Sequence record: PQ338057.1
Reading direction: 5' to 3' (one strand)
Length of the DNA: 64,000 nt
Source: a phage
A program made the position numbers and the translations under genes. How positions within the stretch are numbered: the stretch's first letter is position 1; each line of letters opens with the position of its first letter. Positions 38,342-59,153 of this stretch are shown here, piece by piece. The notes under the pieces were generated by a model, which was not told where the DNA came from, ran no database searches, and worked only from the letters and a program-made list of their open reading frames with translations.

Positions 38342-38710
38342 TCATTCCATTTCGAAATCATCAATCTTCACTTCAAGCTCCAGACTGGTCGTAAAACCGT
38401 TATCCGGGCTGACAGTATGCGTCAGGGTGGTAATAGTCCATTCCGCATCATCTATCGGCTGTTTAAAGCCACTGACTTTCACTGGCATTTCCGTGTAGAG
38501 ATCTGCCCGCCCTTCCGCCAGTTGTAGCGAGAATGACGCAACGCCGCGTTGCAGGCGTTCCCACTGCATTTTCGCCGCTCGTTCGGCGTTGCTCCGGTTG
38601 GCATAAGTGCGATTAAGTACCAGCACGTTTTCATCCGTACCCACCAGGTAATCGCCCTGCTTCGCTTCCGGCTCTTTCTTCTGCTTCTTAGTTCTGCGCT
38701 TACGCTTCAC
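38342..38710 (-). pseudogene. C-terminal remnant of P2 gpD-like late tail protein
   Basis: 122-aa ORF immediately upstream of ogr as in P2 (U-D-ogr); far shorter than gpD (~390 aa); fused to the invertase remnant. Confidence 0.55.
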
Positions 38711-38988
38711 CGTGGTGCTTTCTTTCTTCGCAGGTTCGCGGGTAACTCTTCTATCAGCGTAACAAGATGCCGCATACTGCGCCCCAACCTGTCCAGCTTC
38801 CAGACAACCAGCGTGTCTCCTGCCGATAGTGTCCTGAGCAGTTTTTTCAGCCCCGGTCTGTCGGACTTAGTGCCGCTGATTTTATCCTCAAAAATCCGCT
38901 CACATCCCGCGCAGTTCAGCGCACTACGTTGCAAATCGGTGTTCTGGTCATTTGTTGACACGCGTACATAGCCAATAAGCATGATCAT
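38707..38988 (-). pseudogene. Truncated Gin/Pin/Hin-family serine DNA invertase (N-terminal ~80 aa only)
   Basis: MLIGYVRVSTNDQNTDLQ...DTLVVWKLDRLGRS matches the invertase catalytic domain; C-terminal HTH domain absent. Confidence 0.75.
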
Positions 38989-44714: not shown

Positions 44715-45521
44715 ATGAGTGTTATGAATCCAATAAGTTCTAATATATTTAATGCTGAATTTTTAAACACCCCGGCAGCGGCACTTGCCGCATGGATTTC
44801 CATTATTGGAGCTGTTATAACTTTGGTGACGATAGTTATAAGAGCACTATTCAAATATAGAAAATCTCATGATGTAATTTTGAAAAAATCAGGAATACCT
44901 GCGTTTATATTAAATTTTTTTCTTATACGAATATCATTAAAAAGGCTGCCTACTATCACATGGGCTGAAAAATCAATCACGGTTCTCTTTTCACTTCTTT
45001 TTTTGTGTGCAATTTATATTTTTGGTCCAGTTTTCATCCAAGCCATTAGAACCCCACCAAATAGCACATTGCTTTATTGGATAAAGTCCGGTGAATCATT
45101 TTATATGTCAAAAAAACTGGCGACTGCAGCTACAATATTAACCACTCCTGATTGGGAAATATCAAAAGATGATTGCGAAGAGTCATCCTCTGCCAGTACA
45201 GAGAAGTACAAATCATTAACTATCGAACATAAAGAAATTCTTTGTAAACTACTAACCACTGATGAAGGGAATACTTACATTGATGAAGAAGTCAAGAATT
45301 TCGTTAAAGACAAATTCTTTATCTATTCCTTTGCCCCAACAACCATATTTATTCTATTATGGATTTCTTTGGGTTTTATACTGACCATTCACTATTCTAA
45401 AAAAGTTAGGAAATATATTCTGACTGAACAAAAAAATGCAATTCATTGGGCATATGGTGAATTCAAGACAGAAGGAATCTATTCAATATATCACGAGTTA
45501 GAACGTAAGACTCACCATTAA
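44715..45521 (+). CDS. AT-rich cargo gene encoding a polytopic membrane protein
   Basis: 268 aa with several hydrophobic helices; SD aggtgg; anti-oriented between S and V where P2 has no gene. Confidence 0.6.
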   Translation: MSVMNPISSNIFNAEFLNTPAAALAAWISIIGAVITLVTIVIRALFKYRKSHDVILKKSGIPAFILNFFLIRISLKRLPTITWAEKSITVLFSLLFLCAIYIFGPVFIQAIRTPPNSTLLYWIKSGESFYMSKKLATAATILTTPDWEISKDDCEESSSASTEKYKSLTIEHKEILCKLLTTDEGNTYIDEEVKNFVKDKFFIYSFAPTTIFILLWISLGFILTIHYSKKVRKYILTEQKNAIHWAYGEFKTEGIYSIYHELERKTHH

Positions 45522-46586: not shown

Positions 46587-46857
46587 GTTTCAGTTCCTCG
46601 ATCCGGTGTTGTCGTTGTCTCAGCAGTGCACTGGTCTGTTCTGCTTCGGCATAGAGCCGCGCCTGCTCCCGGTTATTGGTTTCAGTCAGAATGGACAGGC
46701 TGATAAGCTGGCTGTTTTTCTTCGTCAGTTCCTGCGCTTTACTTTTCAGCGCCGCGCGCTGCGTTTCGATGGTGTGGCTGGCGCTGTTAAGCCGCCACGA
46801 CTGCCAGCCCAGCGCAACGAGTGCCAGCGCCACCACTACTGCCAGCGCACGCGTCAT
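46429..46857 (-). CDS. i-spanin (LysB/Rz-like)
   Basis: 142 aa; N-terminal TM then coiled-coil-rich periplasmic region. Confidence 0.65.
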   Translation of the reverse strand: MTRALAVVVALALVALGWQSWRLNSASHTIETQRAALKSKAQELTKKNSQLISLSILTETNNREQARLYAEAEQTSALLRQRQHRIEELKRENEDLRRWADTPLPADIIRLRERPALTGGTAYRQWLSASDAVSAGSGNAAH

Positions 46858-46993
46858 AGTCCAGCTCCTTTAAGGCACCAGGCCATCTCCCGCGCACGGC
46901 GGTTATCCAGCCCCTGATTAAACACACCTTTTACATAAACCCAGCGCGGCAACTGTCGGCACGCATCTGCCCAGCGCCGCTGATTGAGCAATT

Positions 46994-47746
46994 TCACCAG
47001 TGTGGAACTACAGGCATTGCCCGTTGCTGCTTCTGCAGAGCAGACTCCAGTTCAGACAGGCGTTCTTCCTGCTCAGACAGAGATTTTTCGGTTCGCGCGC
47101 TCAGGTTTTGCTGCTCAGTGGCGACCAGCTCCACGGCCTTATGCACATCAGAGAACCGGGCGTCATCGGACTGCTCTTTTTTGGTGAACAGCGCCGTGAC
47201 GCGGGAAAACAGGGACGGTTTGTCGTCCTGGACTTCCTCCAGTTCGATCACCGTTTCCTCTGCAGCGGTAAAGAGATTGGCAGGATTCTGCTTGCGGTTT
47301 GCCAGCGGGTTATGGGCTGCACTGGCGCTGAATGTCAGCATTTCAGTGCCCAGACTGGCAGGGTCATCAGTGGCAGCCAGGCCGACCAGGTAGGCTTTGC
47401 CCGTATCAGCGAACTTCGGGCTGACTTCCATAGAGGTGAATAATTTCTGGCCTTTTTTCACCAGTTCCACCAGGGACTCCGTTGGCTCAACGTCGGCATA
47501 CAGCGCCATCTTGCCTGCCAGCGGACCTTCCGTGATTTCCTCAGCAAACAGCGCCGTCACCTTGCCGTAGCGGTTAAAGGTGCTGTCCGGCAGATAAGAC
47601 TTGATGTGCTCAAGGTTAATCAGCGCGGTATACACCGCCGGGTTGTAGCTGGCTGCCATCTGTTCCAGCCATTCACGCTGGATTTCGCGTCCGTCGGTGG
47701 TGGCACCTTCCACCCCGATGCGAAAACGCTTTGCTTTCACTGTCAT
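46994..47746 (-). pseudogene. Capsid scaffold protein (P2 gpO-like), C-terminally truncated
   Basis: 250 aa, resembles P2 gpO; divergent from P; the downstream N-M-L-X-Y-K-lysA block is missing. Confidence 0.7.
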
Positions 47747-50688: not shown

Positions 50689-50716
50689 CGAAGACCATTA
50701 GGTCTTCGCTTTATTT
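50689..50716. terminator. Hairpin between convergent portal and retron RT genes
   Basis: cgaagacc-atta-ggtcttcg followed by ctttattt. Confidence 0.45.
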
Positions 50717-51660
50717 AAAGGGTTCTTTCCATATTTTTTTTCTAATTTGCTAATATAAGTTATTAATCTCCTATGGCTTTTTGAATCCACACTTAAAATA
50801 AATGACAACCATCCCCTAACGTGTTCTATCTCAGAAGACTTACCGCAAAATATATGATGTATCTTTGCTCTAATTTCTTTATATTTTTCTCTACCTATCC
50901 CAACTTTCTCTTGTGAAATAACTAAACCTGTAACTTTCCTCTGACTACGAGGCCCACTAATACAAGTTTTTTTTGAGTTAATAACCAATCCTTCACTTGG
51001 GATTATAGAAAATAAAAAATCACGTGCTTTAACAACCTTTTTCATAGACTGTGCAGATAAGGTGAGATCATCGGCATATCTCGTATATATCAAGCCCCGA
51101 CTACCTGCATAACCCTGAATACGATAATCAAGTTTAGAACATATTAGATTAGCTAATTTAGGTGATGATGGAGCACCTTGTGGTAGCAGATTTTTATAAC
51201 AACATATTTTTGTCAAAACTGAAGATATTAGTCGATTATAACCAAGAGAATGGAACACTCCAAAAACTTTGTTAGCAGTTAAACTTGGGAAAAAATCCTC
51301 CAAATCAATATTCAGTATAAAGTTTGCCCCAATATGCGGGGTAGCATTATTCAAAATAGATTGGTGCTTTTCAAATCCAATAGAAAAAGGAGATGACGAC
51401 AGTTTATCTAAAATGTTACGTAGAACCCATCCTTGTAAGGCTTTAAGTTCTCGAGAAGGTTGGTAAATGGTTCTCATTCTCTTCTCTGGGCCTTTCTTTT
51501 CTACAGTGTAGATCCTATAGCGAAAATCAGCTGTATAGATTAACAACCGAAGTGTTTCAACAGATATGCGAGTCGCCTTAGACATGTCATGCAAATTGTT
51601 CATGACAGGTAGGCCGAGATTTCTCAATCTAAAAGTGTTCAAATATTCAGCGGATTTCAT
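50698..51660 (-). CDS. ret: Retron-type reverse transcriptase
   Basis: 320 aa; motifs NATPH (NAxxH), YADD, VTG; AT-rich; ncRNA immediately upstream; from memory matches the Ec86/Eco1 RT. Confidence 0.95.
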   Translation of the reverse strand: MKSAEYLNTFRLRNLGLPVMNNLHDMSKATRISVETLRLLIYTADFRYRIYTVEKKGPEKRMRTIYQPSRELKALQGWVLRNILDKLSSSPFSIGFEKHQSILNNATPHIGANFILNIDLEDFFPSLTANKVFGVFHSLGYNRLISSVLTKICCYKNLLPQGAPSSPKLANLICSKLDYRIQGYAGSRGLIYTRYADDLTLSAQSMKKVVKARDFLFSIIPSEGLVINSKKTCISGPRSQRKVTGLVISQEKVGIGREKYKEIRAKIHHIFCGKSSEIEHVRGWLSFILSVDSKSHRRLITYISKLEKKYGKNPLNKAKT

Positions 51661-51666
51661 GAAAGT

Positions 51667-51836
51667 TGCGCACCCTTACGTCAGAAAAAACGGGTTTCCT
51701 GGTTGGCTCGGAGAGCATCAGGCGATGCTCTCCGTTCCAACAAGGAAAACAGACAGTAACTCAGATTCAATGCAGGATGCCGAAACAACATCCAGAGGTT
51801 GACCTTAATGATAAACCTCTCGCTAAGGGTGCGCAT
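51667..51836 (-). ncRNA. msr-msd: Retron msr-msd non-coding RNA
   Basis: 12-nt terminal inverted repeats tgcgcaccctta (51667-51678) and taagggtgcgca (51824-51835); long internal hairpin; ends 7 nt before the RT start. Confidence 0.85.
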
Positions 51837-52746
51837 ACGGAATCTTATCATAGTTAAATGTTGATTTTCTACGGTTTTCAAAATTCATAATCTCAAGCCG
51901 CAATCGGTCAAGTGTCTTTCTATCAAAGACGCTCCTAACATAGCTAGCCCCCAAAGCAGTGACCTGATAACCATCAGTCATTTGAAGTATTTTTCGTTCA
52001 TTTATTAGACGAGAAACAACGGATCTAACAATAATTTTAGATAAAACATCATCTTGCTTTATCGCTTTAAAAGCTAGTTCACACAGTGTGCGGTAGTTGA
52101 CACTATCCAGTAAATAGATACAAGGCAATAGAAACCGCTCTGCGTATAATATATTTCCAATATCTTTTGATACTTTATTTTCTTTCCTAACCTTCTTAAT
52201 AGATGCCATTAATTTTTTATATAATCGTAATTTTCTGGCAACATCAATAGATGAATCACACATTTCTTTTAGTTCATTTGAACTACAACGCAAAACAGAT
52301 TTTGAATTAAACTTACGCAACAGGCGAACAGGACCATAGTTAATAAAGCTACGTTTTGATTTAAATTTTGCATCTTGAATGCAAATCAACTTTCTCCTTA
52401 AGTTTTCATTATTAGAGAACGCACCAAGCTCTGTGAAAGACCCCGGACTTTCAGGAAATAAAATTATTACATCGACAGCTTCAGCCAGAATATTTTCTAA
52501 ACTTAAAAGGCTATGCTGCCCTTGACCAGCCAAAAGATCATCAAATAGATCTTCTGGATAAAATATATCAACATCACTGAACTTTGCTAAAAATTGTGAT
52601 AATTGATGACGCCAAGATTGATGATTAGCAACGTCACCACCACATAGAAAAATGGTTATTTTAATATTAGCTCCTCGATAGAAGCCTTTCTTTGTGAGAT
52701 GTCCTATAAGCTGTTGTTGCTGCTCATCGGTAAATTTTTTATTCAT
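51823..52746 (-). CDS. Retron effector (predicted nucleoside-deoxyribosyltransferase-like N-glycosidase with C-terminal DNA-binding region)
   Basis: 307 aa, AT-rich; first gene of the retron operon with its 3' end overlapping the msr start; Rossmann-like N-terminus KITIFLCGG. Confidence 0.75.
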   Translation of the reverse strand: MNKKFTDEQQQQLIGHLTKKGFYRGANIKITIFLCGGDVANHQSWRHQLSQFLAKFSDVDIFYPEDLFDDLLAGQGQHSLLSLENILAEAVDVIILFPESPGSFTELGAFSNNENLRRKLICIQDAKFKSKRSFINYGPVRLLRKFNSKSVLRCSSNELKEMCDSSIDVARKLRLYKKLMASIKKVRKENKVSKDIGNILYAERFLLPCIYLLDSVNYRTLCELAFKAIKQDDVLSKIIVRSVVSRLINERKILQMTDGYQVTALGASYVRSVFDRKTLDRLRLEIMNFENRRKSTFNYDKIPYAHP

Positions 52747-52821
52747 AATCTCCCCGCTTTTTTTTCTACTTTATACATCAAGTTATGAATAGATCCAATC
52801 TCCATACCACATGGCGCGCGC

Positions 52822-52840: not shown

Positions 52841-53218
52841 GCCCGCTTTATGCAGTGGTTTTCATGCACATGCATAACATGAGCAAAAGCCCGCCAGTTC
52901 TGGCGGATCTGAGCAAAGACGATCCTCAATCGATCATGCGATTTCATGCAGCATAGTCATGCACTGTCAAGGAAGTGAAAATCCGTATCTGAATGGCCAC
53001 TTGAAAAACGGATCATACGGGTTTACAAAGATGAATGTTCGCTGTGAACGGGAAGCGGAAGTTAACTTTCAGATAACATAATCCATATGCACGAGAACCT
53101 CTAAAATAGAATGGGACACCTAAGCGGGGTACTTACAACGATTCTTTCCATATTCACAGTTAACACTCTGTTTGGCGTATTTTTATTCAAATAGCAAACA
53201 CCAATAAAAGGAGTTTCC

Positions 53219-53554
53219 ATGAACAATATTCCCCCTATACCACAGTTAGGAATTTATGTCTCAAAAATCGATCCCACCCTACGTATCACTGTAACCGATG
53301 TTGATATTGTTGATGGTGAGGATGATTCTCCTGATGATGAATTGTTTTATTTAGTCCACTGGATCGAGGGGGAAGATGAAAGTGATATGACAGCAATGGG
53401 ATTTGAGCTAGACCCAGTAGAGTGGCAGGCTTTCGTTGAATCTGAGCAATTAGTGTTTGAGCGTGATCCGTACATGGATTCAATCCCCGAAAATTCAAAC
53501 TTGGCAAAGATTCGGGATTTTCTCATGAAGACTAAACAGAATGATCATTCGTAA
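53219..53554 (+). CDS. Small highly acidic protein of unknown function
   Basis: 111 aa; strong SD aaaaggag; D/E-rich runs DGEDDSPDDE and EGEDESD; accessory locus. Confidence 0.5.
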   Translation: MNNIPPIPQLGIYVSKIDPTLRITVTDVDIVDGEDDSPDDELFYLVHWIEGEDESDMTAMGFELDPVEWQAFVESEQLVFERDPYMDSIPENSNLAKIRDFLMKTKQNDHS

Positions 53555-54331: not shown

Positions 54332-56752
54332 TTAATACAGGTTCCGCCACTTATCATCTTCCTTCAGACGCTGGTTCCGATAGAAGATACGCAGGCCTGC
54401 TCCTGACGGAATACTGCCGCCGCGAAGGAGCAAATCGACTTCTTTCTCGCTGCCATCAAATCCCCTGGACTTCAGTTCATAGACGAGCTGCTGTCGCTGA
54501 TGGTCTGTAATTCGCTGTTTGTAGTCTTTACGCCGTTTCGGTTTCACCTGGCGTAACCTTGCAGCCAGTTCCCGGCGCTCTTTTTTGCTCATACTGTGCA
54601 GGTAATTGTGCAACTCCTTGTCATTCATACGGGTAATATCCGTTCTGGAGTCCCCATCAGCTGATTTGTCTTTCCCTTGTTGGTTCAAATTTTCAGCAAG
54701 GGGACAGTTATTGCCACGAGTCCAAGGGGCGCAAGCGCCCTGGTCGGCTGCCGCCTCCTGAACGTCAACGGCCTTACGAACCATTTTCCACTTCACCGCA
54801 TGAGTGCAGATCTTGCCCTCTGCAATGGGTGACCAGATGCCATAAATACGAATACCGTGATCGCCATATGCGGTCGGTTCTTCGTTGATTTCATAAGCAG
54901 TTCTGATGAGGTGATATTTGCGGGGAACCAGTACGCCGCCCTGCTTCATGATGTAGGTGGCAAAACAACCAGCATCAGCAGCAGCCAGGATTGCATCAAG
55001 ACGCGGGTTATCCAGTACCGGCGCACCTGCTTTTTTGTCACCCTGTTGCCTTGCCGCCTGACCAGCCAGCAATCGCAGTTCACGGTAAGCCTGACGCCCC
55101 GGAATGCCAAAGAAGCGGAATTGCTGAACACGATGCAGAGACGCCCAGGCATTAACGTATTCAGCGTTATCACGCAGGGATTTACCCGTTTCCTTGCTGA
55201 TCTCCCCAGCCAGACCACGCCCGTCAATGTTCTTACTGATGTATTTCGCGATATAGCTTGTTGGCGTACCTTTGCGCGGGTTTATCAGCTCAGACTTAAA
55301 GCGTGGTCCCGTGTTATTGCCCAGCTCCTCGCGGTCTTCACGGATGGCAAACTTACGCAGTAATGCAGTGATGGCGCGGCGGTCTTTTTTACGCATGAAA
55401 CACATGAGATGCCAGTGCACAGTACCGTCATGATGCGGCTCAGCTACCCGCACGCCATACCAGCGCAACTCGGCTTTATGCATAGCCTTACGAAATGCAG
55501 CAAACATGCCGACCAGATAATCGCTACTTTGTCTTACCGTCGCGTTTGTCCAGGTCGGGTTTGGTCTGCCGTTATTGAGCGTGGAATGGAAACGCGACGG
55601 ACAGGTGATAGTGTAGAAAACGGCACAGTCACTGCGCATTTCCGCGATAAGCTCCAGACCTTTAACACAGGCCATCATCTCATTGCGGCGATGCGCCGGG
55701 TTGCTGCTGCTGGCGTTTACCACATCTTCCATATCCAGCGTGTCGCCGTCTTCGTTCACCAGTTCATGAGAACGAAAAAACTCCAGCGACTTACGGCGCT
55801 GCTCACGTTTATGCATCACGGCTTCATAGCTGACATAGGGGGATGCTTTTTTGCTGACCAGGCAGACAGCACGCAACTGCTCTTCCCGCCATTCGCAACG
55901 CATCTTCCATAATTTCCGATACCACCAGTCGGCACACAACATACGCGCCAGCGAACCCGGGATGAGTTCATAGAGCACTGGTTTGCGGCGGTTTATTTTC
56001 CGACGAAGTTTCTCAAACGCAGGCGGGATAACATCCAGACGCAGGGTTTCCGCTGCCACCTTTTCCCATGTCTTGCGGATTTCTTCTGGCTTAACGTCAT
56101 CGGTGGCATACAAATCACCACAAGCGTCCTCAAGACACATGCTCATATGCGCTGCTACCAGGGTGGACAGGCGTTTCACCTGATCCTGGCTCATTTCAGG
56201 CAGGATCAGCAGACCCTCCAGCCCTTGATGGCTTGCCATAAAACGGAAAGAAACAGATAGCTGACTGTCACGTACACAATCCAGTCGCTCCAGACATGGC
56301 TTAATCGTCTCACGCAAATAGCGGGAATAAGCCTTTGGCCTGCCCAGGCTGCTGAAGTATTCAATACGTTGCATCAGCGGCTTGCTGATATGGGAAGGCT
56401 GGGCGTTTACGTCCGCCAGAATGACCATGTCCGGATTAAAACGCTGCTGCTCATGCGCCAGCTTTGCCCGGCTAATGAGCTTATCCTGCTCCATTTCGCG
56501 CTGGACAGGATCACGGGATTCATTAAAGAAATAACGCTCCCAGACCTGCTCACTCAGTGCCTCGCGGCGCAGTTGTTCCTGCTCGTTATCGGCAGCGTAC
56601 AGAGTGATCAGGTTTGAAAGTGCAGACTCCGGCGCAACTTCCGCCGGGTCCAGATAAGGGTTAATGGCCTTTTTCGAGCCGTTCCATGAAAATGCTGCGG
56701 CGGCCTCGTTAAAGCCGCTGCAATAGTTCATATCGTCATGACTCATACACAC
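54332..56752 (-). CDS. Rolling-circle replication initiator (P2 gpA-like HUH endonuclease)
   Basis: 806 aa; HWH motif (TVHWHLM) and paired Tyr (SYIAKYISK). Confidence 0.88.
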
Positions 56753-57600
56753 ACTCCGTACACGGCAGAACTATCCACGCCACGCGAAGGATCAAATCCC
56801 AACCAGCAGCTCGGCCCGGAAACAGCAATGATTTCTGTTGCAGATTTACCCTCGCCAGCTGACACGCCGATGCTGCGTTTTGCCTTGATATAGTGGTGAG
56901 TAAAATTGCGATACAGCGAACGAATCAGGGATGTGTCATTGTTAGAAACAATGACCGGATGTCCTTCTGATGACCGATGTTCAAGAATGGATGCCAGGTG
57001 ATACTGGTCATCTTCAGTGAAACCATCAGTGTGATAGCCGGAAAACGTACCGTCATACGGCGGATCGCAATACACCACATCCCCCACCTGCAGCATCGCC
57101 AGCGTTTCATCAAAGCTCGCGCAGATAAACGTTGCCCGCTGGGCTTTCTCTGCAAATGCGCGAATTTCTTTTTCAGGGAAATACGGATTTTTATAATTAC
57201 CGTAGGGAATGTTGAAATACCCGCTCTTGTTATAGCGACATAAACCACGGTAACCGTGACGATTGAGATACAGGAAATATATCGCCTTCATGAAATCAGT
57301 AATTTCAGTTGAGTAATTAAACTCCTGTCTTATGTTGTAATAAGCCAGCTCACTGTTTGCTTCCTCAAATAAAACTTTGGCACGAGATATAAACGCTTCG
57401 CAATCAGCGGCAATCTTTTTATAGAGGTTGATTAAATCAGGATTAATATCCGCAACCAGATAGCTGGGGTAATCCGTCGCCATCATCACAGCACAAGAAC
57501 CCGCGAAAGGTTCAACCAGTCGCGGGCCAGCAGGAAGGTATTTTTTCAGTTCGGACATAATGGCGGTTTTATTACCCGCCCATTTCAGGATGGTGCTCAT
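56743..57600 (-). CDS. dam: DNA adenine methyltransferase (Dam-like)
   Basis: LKWAGNK and DPPY motifs; start taken at [11 protein letters not shown]. Confidence 0.85.
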
Positions 57601-57824
57601 ACAGCACCTCCGTTGTAATGTTTGCCTTTCAGCTCTGCGATTTCCTGGCAGGTAATGCAAAGCTGCACTCCAGGAATGGCACGGCGGCGTGCTGGCGGAA
57701 TTGGCGCTTCACACTCAACGCAAAGCACGCGGGACACGCCCGGCGTTTTGGCACGGGCAGCACGGATATGGCGTTGGCGTTCTTCTTCAACGCGCTGCTG
57801 TACGAGATCCATTGCATCAGCCAT
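57597..57824 (-). CDS. TraR/DksA-family C4 zinc-finger protein
   Basis: 75 aa; CxxC...CxxC (CVECEAP...CITCQ). Confidence 0.7.
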   Translation of the reverse strand: MADAMDLVQQRVEEERQRHIRAARAKTPGVSRVLCVECEAPIPPARRRAIPGVQLCITCQEIAELKGKHYNGGAV

Positions 57825-58063
57825 CAGTGGATCTCCTGCGCTTCGTTCTGGATTGCTTCAGCAGTCACACGCAGCAGTTCTGCCGCTTCGACGTGGTTTA
57901 GCTGGCGGGAGGTGATATGACACGCCAGGCTATCGAGGCGAGCAGCCATTGCTTCAGCCCTTGCCCGGCGTTCTTCCAGACGAGCCTCTGTCAGTAAAAG
58001 ATTAAGACCTGCATCATCCGGTCCGGTTTTGGTCGTGAGGGTTTCAATATTACGCATAAGCAA
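57824..58063 (-). CDS. Hypothetical phage early protein
   Basis: 79-aa ORF in the early operon. Confidence 0.4.
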   Translation of the reverse strand: MLMRNIETLTTKTGPDDAGLNLLLTEARLEERRARAEAMAARLDSLACHITSRQLNHVEAAELLRVTAEAIQNEAQEIH

Positions 58064-58124
58064 TTCTCCTGAATTTAGATAAAGGGATGCCCGGCGGGTT
58101 TACGCCATTAATTTCATTAGTTGG

Positions 58125-58466
58125 TTAATTCGGCATGGTTAGCCGTCTGGGAAATAAGCTCACCACTGCACGAAAATGATTCATTGCTTTAATCAACTCC
58201 CGCTTTTCGTCAGTGGTCAGCTCATTAATGCTGATGCTATGACGTTCAGCTGGAATTTTTGCCATAAAGAATATGGCAGCCAGTGCCCGTTTATTTTGTT
58301 CATTATTGATATCCCGTGGATCACGCATATCTTTAATAAACCGCTCAAGCTCTGACTCAATATTCAAACCAAAAACTTTCGCCCTTAACTCCGCAATATG
58401 ATTAAGTCCATTCAGGCGTTCACCGGGTCTTAATGGAACAGTCGCCGCAGCGCCTTCAATAGCCAT
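58125..58466 (-). CDS. Hypothetical phage early protein
   Basis: 113-aa ORF in the early operon. Confidence 0.4.
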   Translation of the reverse strand: MAIEGAAATVPLRPGERLNGLNHIAELRAKVFGLNIESELERFIKDMRDPRDINNEQNKRALAAIFFMAKIPAERHSISINELTTDEKRELIKAMNHFRAVVSLFPRRLTMPN

Positions 58467-58637
58467 TTGTTCCCCCGTTTTTTCGTAGATAGTTCTGCCA
58501 GCAATTCATCTTGTGAACGGCACGGATGCCAGCGTTTTCCATCCTCACCCATGATCCAGCCGTGACCGTAGTGCATTGCCGGGCTTTGCTTTACCAGCAG
58601 CGATGCAAATGATGGTTCTTTCGTCAGCATAAGCACC

Positions 58638-59153
58638 TCACAGCAAACCGAATGAAGCACCGAGGCCAGTCACGGTATCAACTGCACTCGCCATCGCAGG
58701 GTTAGCCTGTAAACGGGCCTGCAATGAAACAGCAGCCAACGCCATCAGTCGTGTTACAGAGTTAATGCTGCTGATAGCATCACGACGACCTGCACTGGTT
58801 TTTACATCGCCAGATACCGCACCTGCAGCAACACGCCCGATCTCTGCGGTTGCACTCATGACGTAATGTGGCAGTTTCTCTTTTGCCACCTCATTAATCG
58901 GTACGCATGGCAGGCAGTGAATCTGAGCCAGAAAACCATCTACCAGCGTTGAATCTTCAGTCAGATCGGTAAGCAGCCAGATTTCTGGTGCGGTTAATAA
59001 ATGAGGTTGCGCTGGGTTCAACTTGTTCCGCAGAATCTGCACATTCATGCCAGCACGTTCTGCCAGTTGCACCAGGTTGTGGCGCAATGCGAATGCACGA
59101 CAGGCTTCATCAAAATGTGGATGTTTGGAAACTTGGTAATCAAACATGGTCAA
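58638..59153 (-). CDS. CII-like (186-type) HTH lysogeny-establishment activator; alternatively P2 B-like
   Basis: 171 aa; HTH-like [19 protein letters not shown]; second gene of the early operon after apl/cox. Confidence 0.55.

Follow-up and report, generated by a model that had tools for sequence, protein, structure and literature searches.

The window analysed here, a 64,000-nt stretch of a phage sequence record (PQ338057.1), carries on its minus strand an open reading frame of 307 aa, confirmed in the ORF list with an ATG start and a TAG stop at 51825-51823, whose 3' end runs into the structured RNA of a retron. The locus raises two questions, namely which protein this frame encodes and how its overlap with the RNA is to be understood. 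The ORF is the effector gene of Retron-Eco1 (Ec86) and encodes the toxic anti-phage effector of E. coli B, an already characterised protein, so that the assignment is correct but ordinary. Retron-Eco1 is the founding E. coli retron and a workhorse of retron genome editing. As cryo-EM structures of the Eco1 effector have been published and both its trigger and its catalytic residue are known, the identification in itself adds nothing; a small added value lies in the exact coincidence of the stop codon with the priming UAG and in its variation among relatives (8 of 39 loci). We place at roughly 0.97 the probability that the published mechanism accounts for the locus in full, that is, as a type II-A3 retron effector in a hotspot of a defective P2-like prophage, controlled by RT-msDNA, with the overlap as a matter of compaction. 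The coordinates of all features are collected in Table 1.

Table 1. Features of the retron locus, numbered from the first nucleotide of the window
Feature	Position	Strand	Basis or remark
Effector CDS of Retron-Eco1 (Ec86)	51823..52746	-	ORF list, PDB identity, PADLOC and NCBIfam
Shine-Dalgarno-like GGGGAG, 3 nt 5' of the ATG	52750..52755	-	read from the sequence; putative function
N-terminal NDT-like / N-glycosidase domain, about residues 29-165	52252..52662	-	approximate borders
GAG codon of catalytic Glu106	52429..52431	-	codon and residue check; invariant in 29 homologues; named catalytic in the literature
C-terminal winged helix-turn-helix domain, about residues 200-290	51877..52149	-	approximate borders
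Retron-Eco1 ncRNA (msr-msd), 170 nt, beginning at the A that precedes a1 and running through the end of a2	51667..51836	-	fold
a1 inverted repeat TGCGCACCCTTA, 5' end of msr	51824..51835	-	12-nt arm, 100% complementary to 51667-51678
Priming (branching) guanosine of UAGC, third base of the effector TAG stop	51823	-	TAGC at 51825-51822
Sole CCAGG (CCWGG) of the msd stem, Dcm target on msDNA	51698..51702	-	pattern search
a2 inverted repeat TAAGGGTGCGCA, with 6 nt between it and the RT start codon	51667..51678	-	
Retron reverse transcriptase RT-Ec86, 320-aa ORF	50698..51660	-	Pfam RVT_1 2.9e-25; PADLOC RT_II-A 7.1e-128

Identity, fold and active site of the effector

The identification draws on several collections: 1) A phmmer search against the PDB sequences aligned 307 of 307 residues without a gap to the chains of 7v9x (7v9x_C), 7xjg, 8qbk, 8qbm and 9jm0 (E = 1.2e-203), which are named either 'Retron Ec86 putative ribosyltransferase/DNA-binding protein' or 'retron St85 family effector protein'. 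2) PADLOC assigned the protein to NDT_II-A at 2.7e-94. 3) The NCBIfam model NF038232 ('retron St85 family effector protein') scored 176.6 bits against a cutoff of 100, and NF038233 likewise scored above its curated cutoff. 4) RefSeq gives the effector of E. coli B strains the same label, 'retron St85 family effector protein' (WP_001034589.1). Cryo-EM structures of the Retron-Ec86/Eco1 effector are available as PDB 7v9x, 7xjg, 8qbk/l/m and 9jm0. A search for homologues recovered 385 at E <= 1e-5, with 57 invariant columns across the 29 that were aligned, and the effector gene is kept beside the RT and the ncRNA across dozens of genera. No evidence contradicting the identification was found in the analysis.

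The initial annotation had read the frame as a retron effector standing first in an effector-ncRNA-RT unit, and the identity to the Ec86/Eco1 effector together with the gene order bears this out. Its further proposal of a type II retron whose effector joins a nucleoside deoxyribosyltransferase (NDT)-like N-glycosidase to a DNA-binding part agrees with the identity to the solved protein, the PADLOC call of NDT_II-A and the match to NF038232. The two sequence features that it had pointed to are likewise present, the string KITIFLCGG at residues 29-37 and a basic C-terminal half (residues 151-307, pI 9.74, 31 K+R against 18 D+E). It had also proposed a comparison with NDT folds, and the predicted effector does show an NDT-type flavodoxin-like fold. 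The AF2 model, built from the input of 29 homologues, has a mean pLDDT of 81 and a pTM of 0.76, and superposes with a TM-score of 0.87 on 8qbk_E, 8qbl_E and 7xjg_J, all of them self-matches. Beyond the self-matches Foldseek returned the putative NDT 4mcj and the enzymes MilB and BcmB as weak but high-probability hits, and TIR domains and CMP N-glycosidases, which are hydrolases, rank among its nearest structural neighbours other than itself. The last 17 residues of the model have a pLDDT of about 51 and are predicted to be disordered; the translation ends in ...KIPYAHP*.

All residues named in the study of the Ec86 filament are found at their stated positions in the translation (E65, D69, E84, S100, E106, N112, N113, F128, K131, S133, N136 and R141). 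That study gives E106 the catalytic role, assigns E65, S100, F128, K131, S133 and N136 to ligand binding, and places E84, N112, N113 and R141 at the dimer interface; the title of 8qbl reads 'inactive effector (E106A)' and that of 8qbk 'Retron-Eco1 filament with ADP-ribosylated Effector'. Over the 29 homologues, with identities down to 41%, there is no variation at E65, E84, S100, E106, S133 and N136, and hardly any at D69, N112, N113 and R141.

Classical NDTs (Pfam PF05014 / PF15891) such as LlNDT (1F8Y) and the putative NDT 4mcj are, by contrast, out of reach by sequence. The effector scores 15.7 bits against PF15891, below the gathering cutoff of 30 (E = 0.02), the Pfam scan as a whole returned sub-threshold NDT-like and Stork_head winged-helix matches only, and the profile of 29 homologues run against the PDB sequences recovered only the effector itself. 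The family model PF28093 is precomputed in the homologue database and is absent from the results of the Pfam copy that was scanned. Since sequence similarity to classical NDTs is thus sub-threshold or undetectable, the label 'NDT-like' rests on the fold and the published structures. The active-site architecture of LlNDT also differs from that of the Eco1 effector. Relative to classical NDTs, CMP N-glycosidases (MilB, 4ohr/4jem; BcmB, 4jen) and TIR-domain NADases, the Eco1 effector adds a winged-helix domain and has its activity gated by RT-msDNA filaments. [quoted passage not shown] Retron-Sen2 is, however, of type II-A1 with a clade 1 RT, another type of ncRNA and another trigger, whereas Eco1 is classed as a type II-A3 retron with a clade 9 RT.

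The ncRNA, the reverse transcriptase and the overlap with the effector gene

The arms a1 and a2 form a perfect 12-nt inverted repeat and lie 145 nt apart. A 175-nt stretch around them takes up the canonical retron ncRNA fold, in which a1 and a2 pair into a stem, msr forms two hairpins and msd a single long one, at -81.3 kcal/mol (z = -8.5), and none of 200 shuffles was as stable. The msd hairpin is an imperfect 25-nt one with arms at 51695-51719 and 51724-51748. Scanned against Rfam with a permissive cutoff, the segment 50500-53300 matched no retron family, and the assignment of the ncRNA therefore rests on its anatomy and its identity to the published ncRNA. The sole Rfam hit, a miRNA match on the msd hairpin, was dismissed as due to chance (20.6 bits against 60).

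The RT ORF follows the effector stop on the same strand after a gap of 162 nt, and scores 287.6 bits against the NCBIfam model retron_St85_RT (cutoff 235). RefSeq annotates the retron RT of BL21(DE3) and REL606 as a CDS of 888 nt (295 aa), whereas the ORF in the window has 320 aa and an ATG 6 nt after a2. As the published length of RT-Ec86 is, we take it, 320 aa, the RefSeq start looks N-terminally truncated. A sigma-70 scan gave 7 sites against 9.0 expected by chance, none of them on the minus strand in the 470 nt upstream of the effector ATG, and it located no promoter. The published construct is described as an 'effector-ncRNA-rrt genetic unit with its native promoter', and from this unit we assume that effector and ncRNA are co-transcribed. 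A terminator-like hairpin precedes the effector ATG by some 150 nt on the minus strand (52890-52907; 7 pairs followed by CTTTTGCT), and such a hairpin would insulate the retron from prophage transcription upstream.

At the junction of effector gene and ncRNA, the T (51825) and A (51824) of the stop codon are the 3'-terminal bases of a1, and the G follows immediately 3' of it. The final three sense codons, GCG CAC CCT (A-H-P), also sit in a1, and the CDS, stop included, has 13 nt in common with a1 and the priming G together. The overlap of the effector 3' end with the ncRNA, as claimed in the initial annotation, is hence physically real; its placement of the stop inside the 5' inverted repeat holds for the T and the A and fails for the G, which is the priming guanosine just 3' of a1. 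In Retron-Eco1 this guanosine is described as lying 'immediately after the a1 region', within 'the UAGC sequence' (PMC11754653). Given the TAGC at this place in the window, the effector stop codon is the U-A-G of the published priming motif. Because these bases are shared, recoding or tagging the effector C-terminus in the native unit, or altering a1, affects both the protein and the RNA.

A comparable overlap is found in Retron-Eco11 (type III-A3), which has the same gene order and a clade 9 RT, and in which the ncRNA overlaps the effector 3' end, the effector stop codon falling within the stretch where a1 pairs with a2. The two systems differ in that the Eco11 ncRNA also overlaps the RT start, whereas a2 of Eco1 ends 6 nt before the RT ATG. 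Unlike that of Eco1, the Eco11 effector combines a PRTase-like with a winged-helix domain and depletes PRPP, and its triggers are phage helicases.

The variation of the junction was followed in 80 loci of relatives, taken from one-genome-per-species contigs, in each of which a1/a2 and the putative priming G were located. The counts refer to the 39 loci, window included, in which a motif-anchored scan, restricted to Watson-Crick pairing, matched a1 to a2 at 8 or more positions; ten 'weak' loci and six without the motif were left out, and earlier repeat scans (perfect-only, or with G:U allowed) were discarded on account of spurious arms in several loci. The exact arrangement, with TA closing a1 and G as the priming base, occurs in 8 of the 39 loci, all of which end in A-H-P or A-H-L. 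The stop precedes the priming G by 14-53 nt in 30 loci and follows it by 5 nt in the remaining one. Loci L003 and L004 have the a1 sequence AGCGCACCCTTA in common and place their stops differently. The a1-G-CGA nucleotides are conserved, translated or not. With the exact arrangement in only 8 of 39 loci, the overlap looks like compaction and not like a conserved regulatory coupling. The coupling of effector translation to ncRNA structure, which the initial annotation drew from the overlap, would be a further step, and the comparison of loci lends no support to its being conserved. Many effector homologues at 41-53% identity end in A-H-P or A-H-L in the alignment, and since this tail appears exactly where the ORF crosses a1 it looks like an imprint of the RNA constraint on the protein. 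We read the RNA motif as the element that is probably constrained, with the effector ORF running into it in some lineages.

Three loci of Vibrio and Pseudoalteromonas (L012, L013 and L015) depart from these patterns. Their effector ORF continues to ...GSDSLSFN*, about 60 nt past the expected a1, and apparently crosses a1 into msr stem-loop sequence; the motif scan found no clean a1/a2 at any of the three. They could be frameshifted genes or have a different junction architecture.

Toxin mechanism and competing explanations

In Ec86 the RT with its msDNA is the antitoxin and the effector the toxin. Effector, RT and msDNA assemble 4:4:4 into a unit that repeats along a helical filament, where the msDNA stem-loops sandwich effector dimers. 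A phage-encoded Dcm methylase is the trigger of Ec86 and methylates CCWGG in the msDNA stem-loop, as analysed by mutation of CCWGG (bioRxiv 10.1101/2023.08.16.553469). For the locus in the window the RT would accordingly prime from the 2'-OH of the guanosine right after a1 and copy msd into msDNA, and RT-msDNA would bind the effector one-to-one and polymerise into filaments, which would keep the N-glycosidase domain with its catalytic E106 at low activity. Modification of the CCWGG in the msDNA stem-loop by a phage Dcm would then activate the effector, and the infection would be aborted by NAD(P)+ hydrolysis, by depletion of adenine nucleosides or by both. The caging in filaments, the role of Dcm as trigger and the chemistry on NAD(P)+ or nucleosides come from the literature on the same sequence; identity, domain architecture, catalytic residues, ncRNA anatomy, overlap and genomic context were read in the present analysis.

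The exact substrate of the activated effector is the one step of the published mechanism on which the reports differ. LC-MS after Dcm induction recorded a loss of adenine, adenosine and deoxyadenosine and a gain of guanine derivatives. Later papers have the N-glycosidase filament hydrolyse NAD(P)+, with possible ADP-ribosylation, and call the detailed mechanism unclear; the PDB titles fit this second account. Either chemistry, whether NAD(P)+ hydrolysis/ADP-ribosylation or adenine-nucleoside depletion, differs from classical deoxyribosyl transfer.

Three other explanations may be set beside the published mechanism. The ORF might be a chance or decayed frame of a degraded prophage, left unexpressed, and it does lie in a defective P2-like prophage with several truncated genes. 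It is, however, intact and identical to a protein that was obtained by purification from this locus and whose structure is known in complex with RT-msDNA, and the homologues, invariant columns and conserved RT/ncRNA neighbourhood described above also speak against decay; on the identity to an expressed, structurally solved protein we rejected this explanation, whose probability is negligible. A second proposal concerns the chemistry and would make an NDT-type nucleoside or nucleobase exchange, with adenine, adenosine and deoxyadenosine going down and guanine derivatives up, the main activity in place of NAD+ hydrolysis. The LC-MS profile fits such an exchange, as do the thymine-like and ATP-like densities assigned in the effector active site and a dimer interface of the NDT-like domain similar to that of classical NDTs. 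The later deposition 8qbk is nevertheless titled after an ADP-ribosylated effector, later papers give NAD(P)+ hydrolysis by the N-glycosidase, membership in the classical NDTs fails on sequence, and the nearest non-self folds include hydrolases of the TIR and CMP N-glycosidase kinds. On this balance exchange as the main activity is unlikely; base exchange and NAD(P)+ hydrolysis need not be mutually exclusive.

The third explanation takes the overlap for a regulatory device. A ribosome terminating on the UAG would occupy a1 and the priming G, so that on any one transcript effector translation and ncRNA folding or priming would exclude each other, which would set the ratio of toxin to antitoxin, that is, of effector to msDNA. 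If this were true, toxin synthesis and msDNA priming would be exclusive per transcript and their stoichiometry tuned in Eco1 and a subset of its relatives. The exact overlap does hit the functionally most sensitive nucleotides of the ncRNA, its TA+G form is seen in 8 loci that belong to several genera, the effector gene of most relatives in the gammaproteobacteria and Bacteroidota ends no more than about 20 nt from the priming G, and effector and ncRNA were cloned and expressed as one native unit. Yet the stop stands upstream of the priming G in 30 of the 39 loci and downstream in one, near-identical a1 sequences in L003 and L004 go with different stop positions, and the A-H-P/L tail, for which disorder is predicted, is present only where the ORF extends across a1. 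Retron editing constructs, which are ncRNA-RT cassettes devoid of the effector gene, make msDNA efficiently, and this too counts against a regulatory role. The literature searched contained no description of an exclusion between stop and priming UAG for Eco1, and describes the Eco11 overlap anatomically only. We regard such a device, including the exclusion per transcript and the setting of the ratio, as very improbable. The 13-nt overlap instead looks to us like gene compaction, in which the stop codon happens to be provided by a branch-site motif that is under constraint as RNA.

The retron as cargo of a defective P2-like prophage

Effector, locus, flanks, ncRNA and RT are the same as in Retron-Eco1/Ec86 of E. 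coli B and BL21. The 2.4-kb retron region has 100% DNA identity to E. coli B (REL606, BL21(DE3), C41/C43 and ATCC 11303), and at least 80% of it is present in 48 of 5426 complete E. coli genomes. BL21(DE3), the source in the Ec86 papers, lacks 3.36 kb corresponding to 55454-58810 of the window, a deletion that cuts into the replication endonuclease and a CII-like gene; lost altogether are a DNA adenine methylase, a TraR/DksA-like gene and small ORFs. The window therefore carries the REL606-type version of the E. coli B prophage and not that of BL21(DE3); the effectors of the two are alike.

The retron belongs to a P2-like prophage, which the annotation of the identical REL606 region bounds by rcdA/integrase and ogr/ybjL; it has the portal gene (gpQ) on one side and, on the other, the DinI-like gene and that of the replication endonuclease (gpA). 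The RefSeq order in REL606 is portal, RT, effector, hypothetical, DinI-like, hypothetical and replication endonuclease. The cos-proximal gpA-gpQ hotspot of P2-like phages harbors many defence systems, with retrons among 169 curated ones (Rousset et al., PMC9122126), and Retron-Eco1 is cargo of this hotspot. At 34-35%, the GC content of effector and RT lies well under the 51% of the window, as expected for horizontally acquired cargo. P2 itself carries the old/tin locus in the same position, between the replication endonuclease and portal genes, whereas here the place is taken by the retron and an uncharacterised 111-aa ORF, and the prophage is defective. Its defects include a lysozyme remnant at about 46854-47746 that abuts the gpO scaffold gene, with no capsid, small terminase or holin gene between the two in the REL606 annotation, and remnants of recombinase and VgrG/gpD-like genes beside ogr at about 38342-38982.

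Some further genes of the window deserve mention. The acidic 111-aa ORF (53219-53554, plus strand) is divergent from the retron within the gpA-gpQ hotspot; it matches phrog_17127, of unknown function, over its full length and no Pfam family, and may be further cargo or act as a partner to the retron. A gene of the DUF6216 family (44715-45521, plus strand) stands on the opposite strand between the baseplate V and virion-morphogenesis genes and looks like a second cargo (moron) insertion. Finally, RefSeq marks clpA of REL606 as 'frameshifted' in its annotation, at a position matching about 393-2668 of the window.
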